Shown: positions 1-44,730 of the stretch, in pieces
Layout of the letters: each line of letters begins with the position of its first letter
How positions within the stretch are numbered: the stretch's first letter is position 1
From: a virus
Taxonomy: Duplodnaviria; Caudoviricetes
IMG/VR virus record: IMGVR_UViG_3300036815_000121
Span: 1 to 44,730 of that record
Length of the DNA: 44,730 bases
Strand: one strand, 5' to 3'
Made by a program: the position numbers and the translations under genes
The notes under the pieces: generated by a model
What the model was told of the DNA's origin: nothing
The model's input: only the letters and a program-made list of their open reading frames with translations
Database searches by the model: none

Positions 1-126
1 CTACGAAGCATAACATTTTTCTATTGCCTGAGTCAAACGATACCCCGCCCCCGGCTTGATATTCTTTTTGGAGACCCTATACATATTATTTTTCTGTTGT
101 TTTGTTGCTGGCTTCTTTCACTCCCC

Positions 127-320
127 CGGTCGCTTGGCGCTGGCTCTGCGGTCACTCTGCGAGGGGTTCGCGGTCGCTTGGCGCTGGCTCTGCGGTCACT
201 CTGCGAGGGGTTCGCGGTCACTCTGCGAGGGGTTCGCGGTTCACTCTGCAAATTTATTTTGCGGTCGTCTAACTCTCCAGTTTGCGAGGGGTTCGCGGTC
301 ACTTCGCGGTCACTCTGCAA
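127..320. repeat. 22-bp periodic tandem repeat array
   Basis: CGGT recurs at 127,149,171,193,215,237. Unit A CGGTCGCTTGGCGCTGGCTCTG and unit B CGGTCACTCTGCGAGGGGTTCG occur as A-B-A-B-B, with degenerate copies to ~320. Confidence 0.9.
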
Positions 321-330
321 CTTTGTGGGG

Positions 331-359
331 TTGCGTCCCAATTAATTGTTTGCTAGGGT
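331..359 (+). promoter_or_regulatory. Putative sigma70 early promoter
   Basis: TTGCGT-17 nt-TAGGGT with an extended -10 TG, upstream of the first early gene. Confidence 0.35.
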
Positions 360-415
360 TGGTCTCGTTACATCAAATCCGGGCCATTTGATGGCCCATA
401 ACCGAAAGGATTCCC

Positions 416-1072
416 ATGAACACACTTTTCGAAACGTCTCCCTTGCCAACATCCTCACTCCTGACTGAGCGTTACCGACCGCATACCATCGCGGGTTTTA
501 TCGGTCTCGACAAACCCAAAGCGAAGATGGCGAAACTAGTTGTTTCCCCGTTCGATTCGGCTTGGATTTTCTCCGGGCCTAGTGGGATGGGTAAGACCAC
601 ACTGGCGTTAGCTGTAGCGGAGGAGCTACAAGCGGAGTTGCATCACATTCCCTCGCAACGTTGCACTATTCAAGCGGTCGAGGATATCCGCAGACGTTGT
701 CAGTATGTTCCTATGGCTGGCAAGCGGTTGCATCTAGTTCTGGTAGATGAGGCCGATACCATGAGCAAAGCGGCTCAGGATGCGTTTTTGTCAATCCTCG
801 ATTCGACCAACCGTGCGCCAAACACAATTTTTATCTTCACCTGTAACCAGACCTTGGGCTTAGAGACGCGCTTTTTGTCGCGCTGTTTCGATGTTCCATT
901 CTCTTCCCATGCGGTCTCGAATGAAATCACGGCAATGTTGGAGCGGGTCTGGAATGAAGAAACGAACGGCAATGCTTCCGCTCCTAATTTTCGGAGGATT
1001 GTCAAAGAAGCTAATAATAATGTTCGTACTTCTTTGATGGAGTTGCAAAGCGAGATTATGATGCTTGCCTAG
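416..1072 (+). CDS. Clamp-loader clade AAA+ ATPase (RFC/DnaX/RarA-like), AAA+ module only
   Basis: LTERYRP N-terminal motif, Walker A GPSGMGKTT, Walker B LVLVDEAD, SRC arginine-finger motif (FLSRCF). Confidence 0.85.
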   Translation: MNTLFETSPLPTSSLLTERYRPHTIAGFIGLDKPKAKMAKLVVSPFDSAWIFSGPSGMGKTTLALAVAEELQAELHHIPSQRCTIQAVEDIRRRCQYVPMAGKRLHLVLVDEADTMSKAAQDAFLSILDSTNRAPNTIFIFTCNQTLGLETRFLSRCFDVPFSSHAVSNEITAMLERVWNEETNGNASAPNFRRIVKEANNNVRTSLMELQSEIMMLA

Positions 1073-1145
1073 CATAGTGTAGTTATGATAAAAGTATAGT
1101 TATTAAATCCGGGGTTCGCCCCATAACCTGAGAGGATTACCACCC

Positions 1146-2036
1146 ATGAACATTTACGAGACCATAACCAATCGCATCATTGATTCGCTTAACGCGGGCG
1201 TCATCCCATGGCGGAAACAATGGAAGGTAAGCGCTAAAAACGGGGGAGTTAATGGCATCCCCTACAACCTTACAAACGGCAAGCGATACCGGGGAATCAA
1301 TGAGATTTCCCTGCTTTGCTCTGGCTACACGTCAAGCGGATGGGCAACCTATAAGCAGGCTCAGGCGTTGGGCTATCAGGTTCGCAAAGGTGAGCGGTCG
1401 TCTCCTGTCGTCTGGTGGAGCTTCCCCGATAGAACGAAGGCGGAGGAGAAAGACCGCGCACCATTCGCCAAGTACTATTCCGTTTTCAATGTGGAGCAAA
1501 TGGAAGGTGTACCGGGGGAGTTACCGCTTGGCGATGATGCGGAACCGTTCGACGCGATAGCCTCCGCTGAAACGGTCGCGAATAACTACATGGAATCGGC
1601 CTCGCATCCTACGCTCGGGTTCGGGGGTTCGGACGCCTATTTCCGACCGTCTACTGATCATGTTCAAATGCCTCCTCGTGAATCTTTCCTTTCCCCCGAA
1701 AATTACTATTCGGTTCTGTTCCATGAGTTCGTACACAGTACCGGGATTAAGTCGCGTCTTCATCGGGAGGAGTTGGCCTCAATGATGCGCTTTGGTGACC
1801 GGGAGTATTCGAAGGAGGAGTTAACGGCGGAGTTCGGAGCGGCTTTTCTCTGCGGGGAAGCTGGAATTTCAAACGATTATCTCTTGGACAATTCGACCGC
1901 ATACATTCAGTCTTGGATTGCCAAACTTCAGAGTGACAAAAACTTTGCGATACAGGCGGCGCAACGTGCGCAAAAAGCGGCCGATTTTATCCTCGGGCGG
2001 TCGTGGAAAGCAGCGGAGGAGACGACCGCAGAGTAG
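1146..2036 (+). CDS. ardC: ArdC-family antirestriction / ssDNA-binding protein
   Basis: IPWRKQW, YRGIN, WATYKQA, VRKGE, VFNVEQ (DUF1738-like); zincin-like HEFVH and YSKEELTAEFGAAFLC. Confidence 0.92.
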   Translation: MNIYETITNRIIDSLNAGVIPWRKQWKVSAKNGGVNGIPYNLTNGKRYRGINEISLLCSGYTSSGWATYKQAQALGYQVRKGERSSPVVWWSFPDRTKAEEKDRAPFAKYYSVFNVEQMEGVPGELPLGDDAEPFDAIASAETVANNYMESASHPTLGFGGSDAYFRPSTDHVQMPPRESFLSPENYYSVLFHEFVHSTGIKSRLHREELASMMRFGDREYSKEELTAEFGAAFLCGEAGISNDYLLDNSTAYIQSWIAKLQSDKNFAIQAAQRAQKAADFILGRSWKAAEETTAE

Positions 2037-2040
2037 CAAA

Positions 2041-2096
2041 GGTCGAAACGGGGGAGGAATCCCCCGTTTCAGCGTGATGCGCTGACTGAAGAGACC
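2041..2096 (+). ncRNA. Type II hammerhead ribozyme
   Basis: GGTC-GAAA-[CGGGGGA GGAA TCCCCCG]-TT-[TCAGCG TGATG CGCTGA]-CTGAAGA-GACC; all core nucleotides and three stems present; predicted cleavage after GUU at 2068. Confidence 0.88.
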
Positions 2097-2149
2097 ATTC
2101 AGCAACATTAACCGGGGGTCTCCCCCATAACCGAAAAGGACTAGCCCAC

Positions 2150-2308
2150 ATGGTTCCAAGAACTGAGTTCGGCGCGATTGAAAAGCTCTGGCGAGTGCGC
2201 TGCTATCTCAACGGTATCGCTTCTTATGATCGGTCTCTCACCTTTGAACAGGTGCGAGGAATCGACGCGGCGATTGATATCACCTATGCTGTGCAACGTT
2301 TGTTTTAA
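2150..2308 (+). CDS. Small hypothetical protein, 52 aa (not in ORF track)
   Basis: MVPRTEFGAIEKLWRV...VQRLF follows leader 3 with AAGGA RBS; its TAA stop begins leader 4. Confidence 0.7.
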   Translation: MVPRTEFGAIEKLWRVRCYLNGIASYDRSLTFEQVRGIDAAIDITYAVQRLF

Positions 2309-2347
2309 CCGGGGTCTCCCCCATAACCTTGAAAGGAATAACTACAT

Positions 2348-2464
2348 ATGTATATCGCGAACATTGCGGGTGTAATTTGCATTTTGTTCCTGATGTTTTT
2401 CTTTCCCCTCGCGCATGGGATTGCTCGTCTGATCTGCTTCCTGATAACGAAGGGGGGCCGCTAA
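2348..2464 (+). CDS. Small hydrophobic membrane peptide, 38 aa (not in ORF track)
   Basis: MYIANIAGVICILFLMFFFPLAHGIARLICFLITKGGR follows leader 4; TAATG coupling to the next gene. Confidence 0.65.
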   Translation: MYIANIAGVICILFLMFFFPLAHGIARLICFLITKGGR

Positions 2465-2784
2465 TGCGTAAACCTGATCTGACTTTCTTGGTGACGGTCT
2501 CCCCCGTTTGTCGGGTGATCGGATGCCAAAAAAAACAGGATGAAGAAAATCGCGGTCTCTTCGGTTTCCATTCCTTTACTACGTGTCCAGACTGTCAGGT
2601 GATCCCTGACGGTTGGCAGATGTGGGGGGAGAATGGCCACATGCAAGCGGCTCCTTCCACGCGTGAGTGGATGGCGCATTGGATCAAAGTTAAGGCGCGG
2701 GAACAGTGGAAGACTAAGGCGGGTCTCCTGATGGGCTACCGCTTCCGGGTCGGTTCCACACTTTATTACCGGGGGGGCCGCTAA
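2464..2784 (+). CDS. Hypothetical protein with Cys/His motifs, 106 aa
   Basis: Start reassigned to the TAATG overlap at 2464; CRVIGC and HSFTTCPDC motifs. Confidence 0.65.
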   Translation: MRKPDLTFLVTVSPVCRVIGCQKKQDEENRGLFGFHSFTTCPDCQVIPDGWQMWGENGHMQAAPSTREWMAHWIKVKAREQWKTKAGLLMGYRFRVGSTLYYRGGR

Positions 2785-3014
2785 TGGAAGAATTTGCGCT
2801 GGTCTCTCCTTCGTTCGAGCGGCGTTCGCGCATTGTCTACGTGCGCGGTCGCGCTATCAAGGCGGTCATCTCTACTCATCCCTGTGACGAACGGTGTACT
2901 TCAGCAAAGGGCAACCTTTGCGAGTGCTCGTGTGGTGGGAAGAATCACGGCGCGGATTATCGCGCTGGCGTCGTCCTGGCTCCAGTCGCAGAGGTTGCGC
3001 GGTCGTTGTTCTAA
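2784..3014 (+). CDS. Cys-rich putative Zn-binding phage protein
   Basis: CDERCTSAKGNLCECSCGGKNHG; TAATG-coupled start. Confidence 0.75.
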   Translation: MEEFALVSPSFERRSRIVYVRGRAIKAVISTHPCDERCTSAKGNLCECSCGGKNHGADYRAGVVLAPVAEVARSLF

Positions 3015-3071
3015 CCAATAACCGGGGGCCGCATGGCGCGGCTCCCATAACCTTGAAAGTGAGGAATCAAA

Positions 3072-3395
3072 ATGGAACGTCAACGGTGTGGTTATCATTC
3101 GTGCATCTGTCAAGGGGTGGCTTTCATCTCGCGTGGTGGTGTCAAGCCAGATTCCGATTACTGCGTCAATGGCAAGCGGGTGCGGGTGCGCGATGATGGC
3201 ACGGTCTACGCTTATGATCTGACGGCGGCGGATGTGGCGGAGTTGACTGCTTACTTCCTGCGTGAGTATGCGCGTTACTGCGCTTGGCACGTCGCCAAAA
3301 AGTACACTCAACCGCAAGTCTACGGGGAGATGGTTCTCCAGCCCTTTAACATGGCGTGGCCGTTGCGCGGCGAGTCGCGCACTGGTACAGTGTAG
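3072..3395 (+). CDS. Hypothetical early protein
   Basis: ATG follows leader 5 with GAGGA RBS. Confidence 0.7.
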   Translation: MERQRCGYHSCICQGVAFISRGGVKPDSDYCVNGKRVRVRDDGTVYAYDLTAADVAELTAYFLREYARYCAWHVAKKYTQPQVYGEMVLQPFNMAWPLRGESRTGTV

Positions 3396-3439
3396 TTATT
3401 CCGGGGGCGCGGCTCCCATAACCTGAGAGGGGTTTTCCA

Positions 3440-3640
3440 ATGGTCGAACTTTCCGAAACAGCTAAAGCGGCGCTCATTCTCCACGGTGCACAAAAGACGG
3501 TCTCCGCTCGTCCTGACGGCGCTGTGTGGATTATCGAGGAACGTAAATGGGCGTTGATTGCTTCGCTTCCGGCGGGGCCGGAACACACTTTCATTCTGGC
3601 TCTGATTCACGCTGAGTGTGAGCGTAAATATGGGGCATAA
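3440..3640 (+). CDS. Hypothetical early protein
   Basis: ATG follows leader 6. Confidence 0.7.
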   Translation: MVELSETAKAALILHGAQKTVSARPDGAVWIIEERKWALIASLPAGPEHTFILALIHAECERKYGA

Positions 3641-3694
3641 CTCCAACCGGGGGGCCGCGCTGCGGCTCCCCATAACCTTGAAAGGAATAACTAC

Positions 3695-4072
3695 ATGCAA
3701 AATTTTGTTGGCGTCCGTCCGTTTCGCAACGATATCAGGCCCTATTTCCGTTTCTACTCGGCTCCTCTCGGGGAGGTCGTTGAAGCTGTCGTGCAATTCC
3801 GCAACGACCGCCGTCAAGGGGCTGGCTTTTATCTCTACCTCACTATCAAGACAATCCTGTCTGATGGCGCGGTCCAGTGGATGCCGATGAGTGCGCGGCA
3901 GTCCTATATTCTGCTGTCTCCGGCTGCGCGTTTCGGCTTCCCCAAGCTGCAAGTTTTCGCCATGGCGCTCGACACTAAAATCCCTGAAATTGCAGCGGCG
4001 TGGCGCGATGGCGGGGCGGATGGTATCGAACCCTTTGTTTGTTCGCTGCTCTCTCATTCGCTGGCAATCTAA
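3695..4072 (+). CDS. Hypothetical early protein
   Basis: ATG follows leader 7. Confidence 0.7.
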   Translation: MQNFVGVRPFRNDIRPYFRFYSAPLGEVVEAVVQFRNDRRQGAGFYLYLTIKTILSDGAVQWMPMSARQSYILLSPAARFGFPKLQVFAMALDTKIPEIAAAWRDGGADGIEPFVCSLLSHSLAI

Positions 4073-4130
4073 CTTCAACCGGGGGGCCGTCCTGCGGCTC
4101 CCCCATAACCTTGAAAGGGGAATAACTACA

Positions 4131-4493
4131 ATGGCTCACCAATTGACTCAGGCCGATTTGAACGGCTTCCACGGTTCCGAAGAGTATTACCGGCATCAGC
4201 TAACCGGCTTCGTTTACACGGAGGGGGTTAAGTTCATGGCGGAAACGGGCGGCGCGTACTGGCTGATCGATGAAATTATGCTCTCCAATCGGTTCTCGAA
4301 AAAGGTCCAGGCTGAAGAGTTTCAGGTCTGGAAACTCGACCGCGATAACGAAGGGAATGCGGCTTGGCTGCGGATGGAAGACGGTAACGATGTTCGTCTG
4401 TTCGAAAAGCGGATAGAGTTCACCGATTTCCCTCTACCGGGAATCATTCTCTTCTTTGAAAATTCCACGCTGTACTTACCTTCGGAGCGATAA
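4131..4493 (+). CDS. DUF6876-like protein, 120 aa
   Basis: Start reassigned to the ATG after leader 8; LNGFHGSEEYYRH, YTEGVKFMAE, AYWLIDEI, FQVWKL, IEFTDFPL, LYLPSE. Confidence 0.75.
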   Translation: MAHQLTQADLNGFHGSEEYYRHQLTGFVYTEGVKFMAETGGAYWLIDEIMLSNRFSKKVQAEEFQVWKLDRDNEGNAAWLRMEDGNDVRLFEKRIEFTDFPLPGIILFFENSTLYLPSER

Positions 4494-4495
4494 CT

Positions 4496-4810
4496 ATGGC
4501 TTATGACTATGGCCATGCCATGCAGATTTTGCGCGATGCGCGATTGTTCGCGCCTTCGCTGGTCTACTTGGATGGCAAGTTCCACGTCTTTACTCGGACG
4601 GTGCTGCTCGGCTCCGGGGCAACTATCGAGGAGGCATTACAGGCGGCGGGGTTCATTCCGCCTGTGGTGGCTCCCTCGGTGTTGTTCGTGGCGGTCGGCT
4701 CCAACGTCGTCAAGGAAAATCAAAACGTGGCGGTGGCGCGGTCGCGGACTATGGCGCTGCGGATAGCCAGCGCCCTTAACGAGTACGTTCCGGGTGATCG
4801 CGGGTATTAG
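4496..4810 (+). CDS. Hypothetical protein
   Basis: Starts 2 nt after the previous stop; GGAG RBS. Confidence 0.7.
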   Translation: MAYDYGHAMQILRDARLFAPSLVYLDGKFHVFTRTVLLGSGATIEEALQAAGFIPPVVAPSVLFVAVGSNVVKENQNVAVARSRTMALRIASALNEYVPGDRGY

Positions 4811-4847
4811 CCGCGAATGACCCGCAAACCATCCGCTAAACGGTAGC

Positions 4848-4882
4848 AAAAACGCCTTGGGGTGTGGCCTCAAGGCGTTGTT
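4848..4882. terminator. Probable bidirectional intrinsic terminator
   Basis: AACGCCTTG...CAAGGCGTT inverted repeat with an A-run on the left, between convergent genes. Confidence 0.6.
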
Positions 4883-4897
4883 GCGTCTGGGAGGATG

Positions 4898-5434
4898 TTA
4901 GGGCCGTCCGCTCGGCTCCGGCGCGTCCTTGGGCGTTTTTAGCTTGTCCCATGAGCGGGGGGGTAGGGTGGTGCGGTAGCCTCCATGTTTCACTTCGGCA
5001 TCGCGCACCTTAACGGCTTCTTCAATCGTCTTGTAGGTTCCGGCATGGCGGCGGTCGCCATAGAGCTTGTCCACATCGGCGTACAACCGAACCAGATACC
5101 TCTCTGCGAACGGGTCGAACAAAACGCCTTCGTGCTCCGTGTCGACTAGGCGGGTGGTCTTGTGCTTCCAGTTGTCGAAGCGGCTCACTACTTTGAGGTT
5201 GACGCTGCGGCGGTTGTCCAGGCGGTCTCCATTGATGTGATCGACAATTTTCTTCGGGTCGGTGCATCCCATGATCACGCGATGCATGGGTTGGACGCCT
5301 GTCGGATACTTGTACGTTACCGCGTAGCCTTTGCTATACATCCAGCGTTTGCCTTTGACTAGCGGCTCGTCCTCGTCGTCAATGAGCGCGAACTTTCCGC
5401 GTCCTTTGCTGCCTTGCAGGGGTATCCGTACCAT
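4898..5434 (-). CDS. HNH endonuclease with AP2-like C-terminus
   Basis: MHRVIM, VDHINGDRLDNRRSVNL, GTYKTIEEAVKVRD; start uncertain (5434, 5461 or 5494). Confidence 0.85.
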   Translation of the reverse strand: MVRIPLQGSKGRGKFALIDDEDEPLVKGKRWMYSKGYAVTYKYPTGVQPMHRVIMGCTDPKKIVDHINGDRLDNRRSVNLKVVSRFDNWKHKTTRLVDTEHEGVLFDPFAERYLVRLYADVDKLYGDRRHAGTYKTIEEAVKVRDAEVKHGGYRTTLPPRSWDKLKTPKDAPEPSGRP

Positions 5435-13854: not shown

Positions 13855-15216
13855 CTATGCCGTGGCGGTAACCGGGGGTTTCTTCCGCTTCGCCTTGGCC
13901 TTGGCGGTTGGCTTCGGCTCCGGCTCCGGGTTGACCGCCTTTACTTCGCCATCCTCCAAATACACACCAACCTTACCGCTTGTGTCTACCACCTCCACGA
14001 ACACTTGGAAGTCCTGTTCGTGCGCCATCTCGGAGACGATATTCATGCTCTTGGCATCCAACAGGCTCCCGTCCTTGATGCGCATCACGCGAAGCTCCGG
14101 GTTGGAAGCCATGCCGATAGCGACACTGGCCCTGATCTGATCGGCGTTCGAGGCTTGGTCGAATGGCAGTCCTTCGTAAATCACCATCTTGTCACCGAAG
14201 GCCAAACCGGGTACGGGAAACTCGGCTTCGCTGATGGCGCGGGCGCGGGTGGCTTCGCGTTCGTCCATGGCTGCGGTGAGTTTCTCAATCTCCTGATCTA
14301 ACGCGGCTAGCTCGGCGTCGTAGCCGTCGCGCTGGCGGCGGCGTTCAATGCCTGCATTGATGGTCCGGGCCTCGGTGATCTTCGCGGCAAGCTCCTCCGC
14401 GTTCTTGAGCGGCGGCAACGGCTCCCACTTGGCCATGGTCGCCCGTGCCTTCTTCGCTTCGCTCTCCAGCAAGGCGGCTTCGCGTTCCAGATTATCGGCT
14501 CTGGCGCGTAGCTCCTCGGCCTCGGTGCGCTTGGTCTGTACCTCGGCCTCGTCTGCGGCAATACCTTCCTCTAGCTTCTCGCGGTCGCGCTGCATCTGCT
14601 GTAGCTCGGTGTTGTAGGTGCTGGCCTCGCGTAGCTCCTCCACCAGCGCGGCCTCGTCTACCTTGTCTTTCGGTAGACCCCCCGGAACGGCGAAGGCATC
14701 GCGGCGAATCTGGATGGCATCGCGCTCCTTCTTGGCCTCGCGGCGGCGGAGGTAATCGGCTTGGTAGGCGGCGTCGAGTGCATCGACGTCAACCTCCAGC
14801 TTCACCAGTGAGCGCAAAACCTCCGACTGCTTCTCCGGCTTCATCCGCAGAAATTCAAGCGGGTCGAAGCTGATTCGTCCCATGAGTCCATCGAGGAGTG
14901 CCTGTGGAGACTGGTAGCGGCTGCGGTTGGTCTTCGATTCGAGCGCCAACGTGCCATTGCGACTCCCGTTTTCATAGAATCGGCGGGTCACAACGATGTC
15001 GCCAAGGTCGAGTTCGATATGGCCCTTCCCTGCCCCTTTGCGAACGGGTTGGGAGGGAACGTTGCTGGTGCCGGTCAAGGCCCATTCAATGGAGTCGAGG
15101 ACGGAGGTCTTGCCGCTGCCGTTGCCTCCGCTGATGCGGTTGATGTAGTTGGTGGGGGTGAGGTACACGCACTTAAGGCGCTTGATGTTTTCACTGGTCA
15201 GTTTAATAATTCGCAT
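13855..15216 (-). CDS. SMC/Rad50-like ABC ATPase with short coiled coil
   Basis: MRIIKL..ENIKR, Walker A GGNGSGKTS, central coiled coil, signature-like QASNADQ, Walker B-like MRIKDGSLLD. Confidence 0.85.
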   Translation of the reverse strand: MRIIKLTSENIKRLKCVYLTPTNYINRISGGNGSGKTSVLDSIEWALTGTSNVPSQPVRKGAGKGHIELDLGDIVVTRRFYENGSRNGTLALESKTNRSRYQSPQALLDGLMGRISFDPLEFLRMKPEKQSEVLRSLVKLEVDVDALDAAYQADYLRRREAKKERDAIQIRRDAFAVPGGLPKDKVDEAALVEELREASTYNTELQQMQRDREKLEEGIAADEAEVQTKRTEAEELRARADNLEREAALLESEAKKARATMAKWEPLPPLKNAEELAAKITEARTINAGIERRRQRDGYDAELAALDQEIEKLTAAMDEREATRARAISEAEFPVPGLAFGDKMVIYEGLPFDQASNADQIRASVAIGMASNPELRVMRIKDGSLLDAKSMNIVSEMAHEQDFQVFVEVVDTSGKVGVYLEDGEVKAVNPEPEPKPTAKAKAKRKKPPVTATA

Positions 15217-15218
15217 GG

Positions 15219-15455
15219 TTATTTTGGCCTCTCTTCTAGCTTGACCACGCGTGTATCAACGTTGTGAATCGTTGTTAGCAGGGTCGTGATTTGGTTGTTG
15301 AAGCTCTCATAGTGGCGGTCTACCTTCGCGGACAGGTCGCGGAAGTCTTGCCGCAGAAGTGTGAAGTCATGTTTGTTAACCAAGATGCCGATGAGGATAA
15401 CGATGCAGGGGAATAAGGCGGTCAGAAAAAACGGCCAATAATTTGTCGTGCTCAT
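15219..15455 (-). CDS. Small TM plus coiled-coil protein
   Basis: N-terminal hydrophobic helix followed by a heptad pattern. Confidence 0.7.
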   Translation of the reverse strand: MSTTNYWPFFLTALFPCIVILIGILVNKHDFTLLRQDFRDLSAKVDRHYESFNNQITTLLTTIHNVDTRVVKLEERPK

Positions 15456-15646
15456 CGCGCCCCCGCTTTCTTCTTGGTTACGGTGGTGGGCTTGGTGCCG
15501 TTGGTGGGTTGATAGTGCGCTTTGATGTAGTCGTCCACGATTTTGTTGAGCATTGAGGTACGGTCGCGGTGGTCGTTCGCGGCCATCTCATCGATCACTT
15601 CAACCGTGGCAGAGGGGCAATAGAAATTGATCTTTTGTTTGTCCAT
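15452..15646 (-). CDS. Ribbon-helix-helix DNA-binding protein, 64 aa
   Basis: KINFYCP beta-strand then VIDEMA...RTSMLNKIVDDYI helices; start reassigned to MDKQK. Confidence 0.7.
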   Translation of the reverse strand: MDKQKINFYCPSATVEVIDEMAANDHRDRTSMLNKIVDDYIKAHYQPTNGTKPTTVTKKKAGAR

Positions 15647-15653
15647 GTATTCC

Positions 15654-15681
15654 ACGATACTCCGCTGGAATCTATTGTCAA
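15654..15681 (-). promoter_or_regulatory. Sigma70 promoter, likely leaderless transcript
   Basis: TTGACA-16 nt-TATCGT, 7 nt before the ATG at 15646. Confidence 0.6.
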
Positions 15682-15686
15682 GGCGC

Positions 15687-15723
15687 AAAAAAACGCCCTG
15701 CAAGCATGAGGGCTAACAGGGCG
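15687..15723 (-). terminator. Intrinsic terminator ending the virion operon
   Basis: CGCCCTG...CAGGGCG followed by T7 on the minus strand. Confidence 0.8.
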
Positions 15724-37796: not shown

Positions 37797-38162
37797 ATGG
37801 ATAACCAGAGCAGCATCCGGGTAATGCTCCAGCTAATCATCTTTAGCCTGACCGACAACCCCCAAGCCGTCAAGATTGAGGTTACCGGGCAGGATGGGGG
37901 TACAACCTTTAGCGTCACGGTCCATGCCAGCGATATCGGCAAGGTGATCGGCAAAGGGGGGCGTACTGCCCGCTCGATCCGCACGATTCTAGCGGCGGCT
38001 TCAATGCGGGATAAAACCCGCTACGACTTAGACATCACTCCAAACCCGGAATACACACCTCTAGACCCTGTGCCGTCAACGGGTGCTCCTCAAAACTGGA
38101 TAGCGATTCCTCCTCCTCCGGCTCCGGCTCGGGAGGAGAGTACACCCCGCGCCCGTAGATAA
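37797..38162 (+). CDS. khpA: KhpA-like KH-domain RNA-binding protein
   Basis: LTDNPQAVKIE...VHASDIGKVIGKGGRTARSIRTIL (GxxG loop) matches UPF0109/KhpA; start reassigned to MDNQS. Confidence 0.88.
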   Translation: MDNQSSIRVMLQLIIFSLTDNPQAVKIEVTGQDGGTTFSVTVHASDIGKVIGKGGRTARSIRTILAAASMRDKTRYDLDITPNPEYTPLDPVPSTGAPQNWIAIPPPPAPAREESTPRARR

Positions 38163-40811: not shown

Positions 40812-41154
40812 CGGCGGTCTCAATTGTGGATTGGGGTTTCGGGCCGCGTTTCTTGGGCGGGTTAGCTCTACGATACTCCCGCTCGGCAAGCTCCTCCGGG
40901 GAGAGGTCGGCATCGGGGGGCGGATTCTTCTCTTCCCATCGCCGCCAACGCTGAAAGCGGCTGCGCTCGGCCAAGGTTGCGGGGCGGCGGCAATAGCGGC
41001 ACTCCCGCGCATCCTGTTTGCTGCGCCGCCATTGTTTGCGCAACAGGCTGCACTTGTCGGAACAGGTGATGGCGTGCTTGGGGCGGTCGGCGGGAACAAT
41101 CTCGCCGCACATCACGCAATGCGGGATGATGCCGGAAAAGTGATCTGCTCTCAT
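40786..41154 (-). CDS. Zn-ribbon protein
   Basis: HCVMCG...TCSDKC, CRYC; ATGA-coupled to rusA. Confidence 0.6.
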   Translation of the reverse strand: MRADHFSGIIPHCVMCGEIVPADRPKHAITCSDKCSLLRKQWRRSKQDARECRYCRRPATLAERSRFQRWRRWEEKNPPPDADLSPEELAEREYRRANPPKKRGPKPQSTIETADELSPSHD

Positions 41155-41573
41155 TTGTTGTCCTTTCGGGTTACGGTGTAAACGGTGCGGCTGTTGCCTC
41201 GGTCGTTGCGTATGACGTCGCAGACGCAATGCGCGTAGGCGTCGGAGTGAATGACTCCGGCATCGGTTAGAGCATCAAGCCCAACCTTGTGAAAGTTGTC
41301 TTCGTCGCCCTTCTGACCACGGCCAAGTACGACGACCATATGAACGTCATAGGCGGTTTTTTTCTTCTTGGCATCGGGCGGGGCGACGGTGCGGCCTCGG
41401 GCGAAGATGGCGACGGCCTCTTTGTATGCCTTGGCCTCGGGGGTGACCTTGAATCCCCGGCGCGGGTAGCCGTTGCGGTCGCGGTAGACGCATGGACTCT
41501 TGTAGTGATTCCCCGATGGCGGAACAAGGTAGGGAACCGTGAAAGTGACTACATCCGCGATTTCGCTTGACAT
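41151..41573 (-). CDS. rusA: RusA-like Holliday junction resolvase
   Basis: PPSGNHY, EAKAYK, GDEDNFHKVGLDALTDAGVIHSD. Confidence 0.85.
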   Translation of the reverse strand: MSSEIADVVTFTVPYLVPPSGNHYKSPCVYRDRNGYPRRGFKVTPEAKAYKEAVAIFARGRTVAPPDAKKKKTAYDVHMVVVLGRGQKGDEDNFHKVGLDALTDAGVIHSDAYAHCVCDVIRNDRGNSRTVYTVTRKDNK

Positions 41574-41609
41574 AAAGTGACTATACTTTGTAGAAGTGAG
41601 TCATGGCAA
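41542..41609. promoter_or_regulatory. Overlapping divergent promoters with candidate operator repeats
   Basis: + strand TTGACA at 41567; - strand TTGCCA-18 nt-TATAGT ending 6 nt before the rusA ATG; AAAGTGACTA at 41542 and 41574. Confidence 0.55.
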
Positions 41610-41860
41610 TGAAAAAAAATGCAAAGGAAATCAAGATTAATAGCTATCAAAAGGGGGTCGGCGGACGGTCGCGGCGGCGTACCGGCGTGATCGTCCAAAG
41701 CATCCGCCTTTTGGTGGTCGATAACAACAAGTTGCACGACGCGGCGAAGGTGGAAGGAATCTCCTTCAACGGTTGGGCATCCCGCATTCTCATCCGCGAG
41801 GCCGCAAAGGTTCTCAAGCGCAATGAGGCGGCAAAACAACAAAAGAAAGTGACGGAATAA
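41603..41860 (+). CDS. Ribbon-helix-helix regulator (candidate repressor)
   Basis: SIRL...LHDAAKVEGISFNGWASRIL; first gene of the divergent operon. Confidence 0.7.
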   Translation: MAMKKNAKEIKINSYQKGVGGRSRRRTGVIVQSIRLLVVDNNKLHDAAKVEGISFNGWASRILIREAAKVLKRNEAAKQQKKVTE

Positions 41861-42839: not shown

Positions 42840-43811
42840 ATGGGCGCGATAACAGAAATTTCACGGAACCCTTTAAGCGGCGTTGTCAATGAGAGGCGCA
42901 TGGAGGCTTCGCTACAGATGTTCGATATCGAACGCGGCAATGCGAAGCCATCGTTCTATTACCTCAACACCGTGCTCGCGCAAACCAGTCTGCCCCACAA
43001 AGACCCCGGCGATATGCCCTTTTTCAAGTGTGAAAACGGCAACGTCGCTACTACTCTTGTGCGCGGCACTCTCCGTAATCCCTTCAGTGGAAAAATCGAG
43101 TTGCAGGGCTACCCTTATGGCACGAAGCCCCGATTAATGCTCATGTACCTGTGCAGCAGAGCAACCTTGACAGGGAGTAAAGAGATTTACCTGGGCGGCT
43201 CTCTGACGGAATTTCAGCGGCGTATCGGAATCGAGCAATCAACCGGGGGGGTTACCGGGTCGTTGGCTCCGACAAAAAACCAGTTAATGCGTCTCGTATC
43301 CACACATCTCCAGTTGTATTGCGGAGCTATAAACGCCTACTCCATGACCCATGCGGTTCCTCCTATCAAACGCTTCGATTTTTGGCTTCCCGAGGGCCGT
43401 GGAGCCATGAAGTGGGAGGGTATGGTGACGCTCGATGATGAGATTTTCAATTGTCTACAAGATCGTTCCTGCCCCCTACAGGCGTCGGCCATTGTTGCGC
43501 TGCATAACTCCAGTTTGGCGCTCGATATTTATACGTGGCTGGCCTTTCGGCTCTGGCGGATCAAGGTTAGTCCAATGAGGCCGCTGCCTTGGGACTCGCT
43601 TCATGCTCAGTTCGGATCGGGATATAGCAGGATTCGAGACTTTCGGAAGGCTTTCAAGGAATCTCTTCAGTTGGTGAAATCCGTCTACCCGGAAGCCTGT
43701 TTCAGTTTCGACCACAACGACGAGCTAGTTTTGCGGCGTTCTCAACCTCCTGTGGCGAAGTCCACTATCGAGCGGGAGGTAAAAACTCTCCAACTTTCGC
43801 TAAACTATTGA
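42840..43811 (+). CDS. repA: Plasmid replication initiator RepA (RepA_C-like family)
   Basis: LAQTSLPH, GYPYGTKPRL, SSLALDIYTWLAFRL, LHAQFGSGY, VYPEA. Confidence 0.88.
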   Translation: MGAITEISRNPLSGVVNERRMEASLQMFDIERGNAKPSFYYLNTVLAQTSLPHKDPGDMPFFKCENGNVATTLVRGTLRNPFSGKIELQGYPYGTKPRLMLMYLCSRATLTGSKEIYLGGSLTEFQRRIGIEQSTGGVTGSLAPTKNQLMRLVSTHLQLYCGAINAYSMTHAVPPIKRFDFWLPEGRGAMKWEGMVTLDDEIFNCLQDRSCPLQASAIVALHNSSLALDIYTWLAFRLWRIKVSPMRPLPWDSLHAQFGSGYSRIRDFRKAFKESLQLVKSVYPEACFSFDHNDELVLRRSQPPVAKSTIEREVKTLQLSLNY

Positions 43812-44553: not shown

Positions 44554-44730
44554 AGCCGTATAGACCATTGGGGCGCAGTGCCACAAGTAATCGTTTAGGA
44601 CAGAATGACCTGTAAAAACTACCAGTAGCCGGGGGTGGGAAGAACCAAGCAAGAAAACAATGAAACAATAAAGTGTTGAAAAAGTGTATGGAGATATGCT
44701 AAGAACAAAGCTGTGTTGAAGCAAGGAAAA

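Follow-up and report, generated by a model that had tools for sequence, protein, structure and literature searches.

Why does the left end of a phage genome carry the same small structured sequence in front of one early gene after another? This question is raised by IMG/VR virus record IMGVR_UViG_3300036815_000121 (Caudoviricetes), all 44,730 bases of which are referred to here as the window. Eight leaders, each made up of CCGGG, a stem, CCCATAACC and a Shine-Dalgarno (SD) sequence, are confined to positions 379-4130 of this 44.7 kb phage. Our analysis gives good support to the leader being a sense-strand hairpin, whose fold is kept across a family of related phages while its sequence is genome-specific. 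As to its role, we propose, with confidence about evenly balanced, a portable translation-start leader with a hairpin that would likely block decay from the 5' end and with copies that would double as recombination joints.

A repeated leader in the early gene array

A preliminary description of this DNA had reported eight leaders in an early gene array, and the counts agree with it: exact CCCATAACC occurs eight times, always on the + strand and between positions 395 and 4110, with no further copy on either strand of the 44,730 bases, whereas dinucleotide shuffles (n = 200) gave a mean of 0.3 and a maximum of 2 copies of this 9-mer, and a mean of 0.005 for CCGGG-N-CCCATAACC. All eight leaders begin with CCGGG and have predicted stems of 4-10 bp, and the SD lies 5, 9, 9, 10, 6, 7, 8, and 9 nt before the ATG in leaders 1 to 8, respectively, within the 5-10 nt initially given. 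The eight genes said to be headed by these leaders are part of a longer array of 11 + strand open reading frames (ORFs) ending at 4810, and the ORFs at 2464, 2784, and 4496 have no full leader; a truncated GGGGGCCGCTA is found 5' of the first two (at 2453 and 2773). Even the 52- and 38-amino acid (aa) ORFs of the array have homologues in relatives, and we therefore regard the cassettes as real genes.

The hairpin is kept while its sequence changes

Relatives were gathered via the window AAA protein aligned with 35 homologues; three collections gave 138, 489, and 91 candidate loci, and the best 80 were taken from each. The set analyzed comprised the window and 37 non-redundant contigs of 35-44 kb (labeled L plus a number) with an AAA gene at most 800 nt from an end. 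A homologous terminase (26-89% identity) was present in 36 of the 36 relatives tested, and a RepA-based search gave one close relative, without the array end. L289 and L290 belong to a single 69 kb contig that carries the AAA gene in both orientations.

The strict form of the window pattern matched 2 unrelated contigs, with no repeated occurrence near an AAA gene in any GTDB locus examined, and its loose form gave single matches in unrelated contigs, with a maximum of 2 copies per locus. We searched with eight anchor patterns, drawn up by eye and demanding no inner pairing, in place of an earlier generic hairpin detector judged too noisy (131 of 317 array genes versus 12-21% in controls). These anchors gave 130 matches on the + strand and 9 on the minus strand, with 37 of 38 genomes represented on the former. 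After six matches were dropped as other elements, 124 leader copies were left, with at least two copies in each of 31 genomes.

The common design consists of an A/C-rich 5' flank (9% G across the 124 copies), a stem with a G-G/C-C core, an A/C-rich linker (mostly 7-11 nt; 11% G), and the SD. The linker reads ATAA in the window, CAAA, TCAA, ACAA, or CTAA in near kin, and is unrelated in more distant genomes; across relatives, C-C and one G are the only near-invariant positions, and CCCATAACC is invariant only within this genome and its nearest kin. The idea that an invariant ATAACC and a second mini-hairpin at the SD form the functional core was thus not borne out: relatives keep only the stem core and the A/C-rich flanks, and the mini-hairpin, predicted at only -0.6 to -3.9 kcal/mol, is absent from many of them.

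Pairing, in contrast to sequence, is retained, as had been proposed for stems that vary. The set contains 68 distinct stems, and 58 of 61 preserve the first pair inside the anchors, with five pair types (shuffled mean 26.7, maximum 38). In a 40-row alignment of 12- and 14-nt stems, 38 cells changed on both sides (matched in 0 of 500 shuffles) and 88% of positions paired, versus 35-51% in slid controls, although, because the rows share ancestry and also supplied the structure, these figures are not probabilities. Ungapped stems measure 3-13 bp, mostly 4-6 bp (only 1 of 68 exceeds 10 bp), and the commonest loop is UUCG (7 of 68 stems). The sense-strand character of the element had been argued from G-T pairs in the window; the four pairs concerned occupy one homologous position and are not four independent events, but the covarying hairpin and the internal pairs of the family (10 G-U, 0 A-C) uphold that reading.

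Rfam searches gave no gathering-level match in the window (three unrelated chance matches at E ≤ 10 within positions 1-5000), and twister-P5 was the only family matched in 36 relatives, so the leader has no Rfam family, as expected. Variants of the theme were also observed. Tandem double leaders, with an extra hairpin and a CAACC-like linker before the usual one, occur in L135 (339-400 and 622-680) and L136 (6 of 7 copies). A predicted small H-type pseudoknot (GCGC-loop-GCGC, a linker, and a CC-rich tail pairing with the loop), which shows compensatory changes and sometimes lies directly 3' of a hairpin leader, is placed just 5' of the SD in L182:2962, L166:3761, and L289:8530, with similar ones in L135:3841, L154:3330, and L183:3332; it was not found in the window, and as modeled it could block an exonuclease. 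More distant AAA-bearing elements (L141, L243, L267, L179, and L185) carry other repeated leaders (AAATCTAAA runs, CCAGTCCGCCGGA, GAGCAGCTA), and repeat-headed arrays therefore reach beyond the hairpin type.

Leaders follow promoters, ribozymes, or stop codons

Classified by upstream context, with ribozymes counted first, 47 of the 124 copies have a promoter match, 7 a ribozyme, and 70 neither. A promoter-like sequence was found 5' of first copies in 23 of 37 cases (null 2.7) and of internal copies in 25 of 87 (null 4.1). For TTGAC promoters the count is 25 of 37 first copies (null 1.7), and TTGAC was found upstream in 15 of 20 AAA leaders of relatives tested. Internal copies with neither element sit 2-63 nt after a stop codon in 55 of 56 cases. 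In the window, only leaders 1 and 6 have weak promoter matches by regular expression, and a stricter scanner gave none in front of the window leaders; the slot of the promoter-like element before leader 6 reads TGnTATAGT in L132, L133, L134, and L215.

Nine twister-P5 ribozymes were identified in 8 of 36 relatives. Seven are followed by a leader within 7-18 nt and the other two run straight to the SD, indicating that ribozyme and leader are additive, not substitutes. The window has a putative hammerhead at 2041-2096, in a region where relatives carry twister-P5. It has all core bases (GAAA, UH, and CUGANGA) and three stems with stem II open, as in type II hammerheads; its predicted active fold lies 4.2 kcal/mol above the minimum free energy (MFE), and both Rfam and a hammerhead regular expression missed it.

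A proposed role in translation start and RNA protection

Such a leader would let each small gene start translation independently and shield that start from 5' decay. RNA 5' ends would arise from sigma70 promoters, ribozyme cuts, or host endonuclease cuts in the single-stranded stretch past a stop codon; RNase J would trim toward the hairpin, and the hairpin together with the initiating ribosome would stall decay. We put the decay-blocking function of the hairpin just short of an even chance. Its 3' end lies a median of 22 nt before the ATG, which is the edge of an initiating ribosome, and the predicted energy needed to open the ribosome-binding site (RBS) behind leaders has a median of 6.6 kcal/mol, versus 11.5 kcal/mol at 30 late genes.

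The host is likely an acidobacterium, because the nearest relatives of the first cassette's AAA+ protein among GTDB genomes are mostly in Acidobacteriota assemblies, and phage contig L147 shares its AAA upstream sequence with a 42.6 kb contig binned as Acidobacteriaceae. Among five Acidobacteriota genomes, RNase J scored above the cut-off in five, RNase E/G in four (with a match in all five), and RNase Y in none. In organisms with RNase J, 5' roadblocks and ribosome-bound leaders are described as stabilizing downstream RNA (PMC3997798).

Several observations weigh against this proposal. Three of the 11 array genes in the window lack a leader, as do two of the nine twisters; the anchors were taken by eye from the very loci searched, and six matches were removed in the same way; and three close genomes account for nine of the ten G-U cases. 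The stem of promoter-linked copies lies 8-30 nt past the -10 box (median 16) and thus frequently away from the 5' end, many stems have just 4-5 bp and would be weak blocks to an exonuclease, and the host assignment depends on AAA homologues plus a single binned contig. In silico deletion of the hairpin shifts the RBS opening energy by only 0.4 kcal/mol (worse in 61 and better in 49 of 124 copies), and breaking the stem raises it in 33 of 37 genomes by a similarly small amount; RBS openness would therefore be owed mainly to the linker, leaving the hairpin to serve some other function. A function as RBS insulator was set aside for this small predicted effect. Two further candidates were rejected: pairing of cassette 5' and 3' ends, or of the 5' CC with the SD GG, appeared in the MFE folds of copies 1 and 2 only and is not conserved, and an RNase P minihelix (stem plus ACC) does not suit GTGG-type leaders, which have no ACC.

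One alternative is a PeSL-like attenuator, in which a poly-G/poly-C hairpin would terminate or dampen upstream read-through, or stop antisense late transcription, with shuffling as a by-product. PeSL stems are described as often poly-G then poly-C and as spanning the upstream stop to the SD/ATG, and one terminated in vivo (PMC2839356); in addition, two of the eight window copies score as minus-strand terminators and the internal copies without promoter or ribozyme closely follow stop codons. We nevertheless consider it unlikely, since at least five T within 8 nt 3' of the stem are found in 0 of 124 copies (the minus-strand equivalent in 8 of 124), first copies lie 3' of their own promoter, and 70 of the 124 copies lack a promoter match that would restart transcription.

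Equally unlikely, in our estimate, is a translational operator, where a phage or host RNA-binding protein on the stem base and flanks would repress or activate all early genes together. Loop and stem length vary freely inside one genome (4-10 bp in the window), which is difficult to reconcile with such a protein, even though stem base and linker are conserved in a genome-specific fashion, the leader lies at the edge of the ribosome footprint, and Aca1 and Aca2 are reported to bind RNA motifs in the 5' untranslated regions of anti-defence operons (PMC13551039). KhpA, encoded in the window and at first thought to be a partner of the leader, is present in just 7 of 36 relatives, and no other conserved RNA-binding protein turned up, although no systematic search for one was made.

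Slightly more doubtful is an endonuclease processing signal, similar to the T7 early RNase III sites, that would cut the polycistronic RNA into single-gene pieces. Leaders do sit between genes, in arrays that also hold ribozymes, and their A/U/C-rich single-stranded flanks could suit RNase E, which the hosts encode. RNase III substrates, however, measure about 11 bp or more, and most leader stems have 4-6 bp; first copies are near the transcript start, where cutting would free nothing; and a leader comes after 7 of 9 twisters rather than in their place, which also weakens the earlier suggestion of a cleavage role equivalent to that of ribozymes.

We give very little credence to a DNA-only element, that is, a homology tract or single-strand hairpin recombination site without an RNA role. 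Plain homology needs no compensatory pairing, and the fixed orientation and SD/ATG spacing, UUCG as the commonest loop, and the lack of an integrase among 60 window ORFs scanned by profile search all speak for RNA, while the homogenized leaders within genomes, the breakpoints at leaders, and the duplicated hairpins in L135 and L136 would suit DNA, as would the report that structure-ORF-structure arrays can be attC-like DNA sites (PMC5737381). A new small self-cleaving ribozyme or an N4-type template-strand hairpin promoter is the least credible of all, for although ribozyme classes are described as clustering near one another and near phage genes (PMC6765202), a near-invariant C-C plus one G is too little for a catalytic core, no phage RNA polymerase was found among the window ORFs scanned, and ordinary TTGAC promoters stand at most first copies.

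A translation-start leader capped by a decay-blocking hairpin is favored because the hairpin has no U tail, is too short for RNase III, has no catalytic core, and lies at the ribosome edge, and because RNase J is present in the probable hosts. The leader family is a natural factorial design, with leaders after a promoter, ribozyme, or stop codon in dozens of genomes and with covarying stems, which makes the idea of processing and protection directly testable.

Diverse cargo and probable recombination at leaders

The 124 leader-headed proteins fall into 51 families, of which 34 are singletons, in accordance with the prediction that cargo would differ between leaders in relatives; the largest are AAA (29), ArdC (18), and DUF932 (7). 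The array thus flags some 50 families of small, mostly unknown candidate anti-host proteins. A GGDEF-domain protein was also observed as leader-headed early cargo in L167:2765 (PF00990, E = 8e-37) and L202:1734.

That leader copies serve as recombination joints we regard as probable. All four sequencing runs with this region (X1-X3 are labels of such runs) are soil metagenomes. In run X2, a relative 95-98% identical to the window in flanking pieces has 507 nt in place of 334 nt, starting within leader 3 at 2118, and from 4104, inside leader 8, has 391 nt exchanged for a diverged stretch of equal length; a third change (4798-4821) is away from any leader. Low-depth contigs have another gene after leader 5 in X1 and X3 and after leader 8 in one X3 contig, and L132 carries an extra leader and a 56-aa ORF between AAA and ArdC, with the operator-leader block duplicated. 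Leaders are 81% similar within a genome versus 48% in the same slot across genomes (10 genomes), and in 8 of these 10 no foreign first leader is closer than the genome's own second leader. Recombination between copies of 25-40 nt would homogenize the leaders within a genome and move units of leader and ORF.

Other points tell against this reading: the right breakpoints (2453 and 4496) are outside full leaders, replacements end near gene borders in any case, the same-length swap at 4104-4496 may be an allele, and gene order is partly fixed, with AAA first and ArdC or DUF932 second. The suggestion that cargo is shuffled at leaders is supported by the changing cargo and by the replacements starting inside leaders 3 and 8. 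No circularizing leader-to-leader joint was seen in the four DNA runs as assembled contigs, which drop rare forms. Two further contigs were noted: one from X2, ending at window position 376, represents a co-occurring relative with an L134-type leader at the same first promoter, and a low-depth X3 contig has a 412-1144 joint that fuses leader 1 to the ArdC start and skips the AAA cassette.

The AAA+ gene is the first cassette in most family members. A bolder proposal, which we think quite improbable, is an integrase-free cassette system in which a 40-nt element is at once an RNase J-blocking cap, a translation start, and a short-homology recombination site, with the RarA-like AAA+ protein driving exchange. 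If true, the phage would keep re-dealing ready-to-express anti-host genes, with ribozymes and the small pseudoknot as add-on parts. An SbcC/Rad50-like ATPase (13855-15216, minus strand) and a RusA resolvase (41151-41573, minus strand) are candidates for a recombination layer.

Operator-like sites and genome context

The positions of the array features are given in Table 1.

Table 1. Features of the early array and its borders in the window.
Position	Strand	Feature	Basis or remark
331..359	+	Promoter-like, weak sigma70, TTGCGT-17-TAGGGT with TG, 5' of leader 1	Regular expression, inferred; missed by stricter scanner
379..415	+	Leader 1, stem 381-397, heads AAA+ gene	
416..1072	+	AAA+ clamp-loader/RarA-like protein, 218 aa, first cassette	PF00004, E = 3e-14; phrog_168; JGI annotation names
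1079..1086	+	GTAGTTAT site, operator-like	Inferred; GTATAGTTAT variant then directly 5' of leader 2
1109..1145	+	Leader 2, stem 1111-1122, UUCG loop	
1146..2036	+	ArdC anti-restriction protein (ArdcN and zincin)	DUF932 in this slot in 7 relatives
2041..2096	+	Putative type II hammerhead ribozyme, predicted cut after 2068	By-eye reading and fold
2112..2149	+	Leader 3, stem 2114-2126, 17 nt 3' of hammerhead	Left breakpoint of run X2 replacement
2150..2308	+	52-aa ORF, family F5	Homologues in L136, L162
2309..2347	+	Leader 4, stem 2311-2321, immediately 3' of stop codon	AATAACTAC in spacer
2348..3014	+	Three coupled ORFs of 38, 106, and 76 aa, last two after truncated GGGGGCCGCTA	38-aa ORF homologue in L134
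3022..3071	+	Leader 5, stem 3024-3046	Different gene follows in X1, X3 contigs
3072..3395	+	107-aa ORF	Homologue in L135
3363..3399	+	Promoter-like TTGCGC-17-TACAGT with TG, then GTAGTTAT over predicted start site	Inferred
3401..3439	+	Leader 6, stem 3403-3417	
3440..3640	+	66-aa ORF	Homologues in L132, L134, L182
3647..3694	+	Leader 7, stem 3649-3671	
3695..4072	+	125-aa ORF	Homologue in L132
4079..4130	+	Leader 8, stem 4081-4103	Left breakpoint of same-length diverged replacement, run X2
4131..4493	+	DUF6876 protein	PF21781, E = 5.5e-38
4496..4810	+	104-aa ORF without leader, last gene of array	In L132, L133, L134 (blastn)
4846..4884	.	Long hairpin after array, likely terminator between convergent gene blocks	Inferred from sequence

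A second repeated sequence, ATAACTAC/GTAGTTAT, is spread genome-wide irrespective of transcription direction, with 22 sites (null 0.3) on the two strands between 1079 and 42829, 15 of them inside ORFs. Before leaders 2 and 6 it overlies the predicted start sites, and in leaders 4, 7, and 8 it falls between SD and ATG. The 9-mer is present in 12-21 copies in five of 36 relatives, and others have different palindromes at promoters; for TAGTTAT, 16 of 87 internal leaders (8 genomes) have a copy no more than 30 nt upstream. The repeat looks like a DNA-binding site, stoperator-like or other, and these candidate sites are comparable to the operators described for Reg576 (PMC6294495) or the Aca14 sites (PMC13551039). 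A ribbon-helix-helix (RHH)-like ORF at about 15452-15703 (minus strand; RHH_1 match at 15455-15670 with E = 0.055, below the cut-off) is a candidate repressor, and this DNA layer, with GTAGTTAT sites at some promoters, would probably turn the array off later. There is a second small possible RHH protein at 41603-41860 (+), with no Pfam match.

Profile searches placed the portal, large terminase, and major head genes on the minus strand, and the small-gene block at the left end and a RepA_C gene near the right end on the plus strand. KhpA (PF13083, E = 2e-17) is encoded at about 37800-38162 (+), antisense between portal and terminase. The RepA_C gene (42840-43811, +) is of plasmid type, with ATAACTAC just 5' of its start, and the phage may replicate in plasmid style. 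Window positions 1-30 and 44715-44730 match the arms of an inverted repeat that starts relatives (L132:1-52; L136:1-58; spacer 14-15 nt), which suggests that the array lies right next to a fixed terminus of cos-like or telomere-like type. Positions 120-320, between the genome end and the first promoter, hold several direct repeats of a GCGGTCACTCTGC/GAGGGGTTC unit that is also found in L132; they are possible iterons or packaging signals. PADLOC gave only generic AAA matches. GenBank phages gave distant clamp-loader matches only (34% identity for the best among those listed), and no close GenBank phage was found for these likely Acidobacteriota-infecting phages.

Comparison with known systems

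No description of the leader was found in the open full-text literature; the alignments in the motif-catalogue supplements of PMC5737381 and PMC10690425 were outside the scope of this search, and an entry there is possible. Integron arrays combine an integrase with RYYYAAC and GTTRRRY boxes around the attC hairpin, whereas no integrase was found among the 60 ORFs and the window hairpin precedes such boxes instead of lying between them. T7 early RNase III sites also punctuate an early phage operon, but with much longer stems. The 5' stabilizers of ermC, cryIIIA (STAB-SD), aprE, and ompA likewise place a stem-loop and a strong ribosome site 5' of a gene, but are described as single-copy elements (PMC3997798). 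Start-associated sequences (SAS) and ESAS of cluster K mycobacteriophages are genome-specific repeats at the translation starts of some genes; however, SAS is reported as a 13-bp SD-containing sequence and the hairpins of ESAS as having little support from its authors, while the leader keeps pairing and not sequence (PMC3203893).

Clustered hammerhead and twister ribozymes are described as flanking prophage genes such as ardA (PMC3088659; PMC6765202), and in the present arrays ribozymes adjoin anti-restriction genes. The leader differs in being, by sequence, a non-ribozyme element added after the ribozyme. It bears on a question posed in PMC6765202, namely the reason why self-cleaving ribozymes are found next to early and anti-restriction genes in bacterial and phage genomes. 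EGeRS2/Reg576 and EGeRS1 of pLS20-family plasmids are also repeats that precede ardC and establishment genes and cluster by replicon, and their RHH repressor and promoter operators can be likened to the candidate GTAGTTAT sites and the RHH-like ORF (PMC6294495; PMC8708921). As described there, EGeRS2 is a promoter plus operator and EGeRS1 measures 400-750 bp, whereas the leader is a phage element of 35-55 nt with a covarying hairpin beside the RBS.

The closest known element is the T4-type PeSL, with which the leader shares a repeated unit, the span from upstream stop to SD/ATG, a poly-G/poly-C stem-loop, a hyperplastic early region, and gene indels at the repeats (PMC2839356; PMC4122927). The leader has no Rfam family, but the claim of a new system is too strong, because its design is close to published PeSL cassettes. 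PeSL is described as always having a consensus sigma70 promoter, which the stem mostly overlaps or lies within, and as acting as a terminator (PMC2839356; PMC4122927), whereas the leader has promoter matches in 2 of 8 window copies (both weak) and 47 of 124 overall, with neither promoter nor ribozyme in 70. Where a promoter is present, the leader stem lies 3' of the -10 box. The leader has no U tail and is combined with ribozymes in the same family. Recombination between PeSL units gives indels and mini-circles; one indel and replacements at leaders were seen here, and no circular joint appeared in the assembled contigs, which lose rare forms. By analogy, the leader would work like PeSL as a shuffling joint, while forming in its own right a compact natural expression part.

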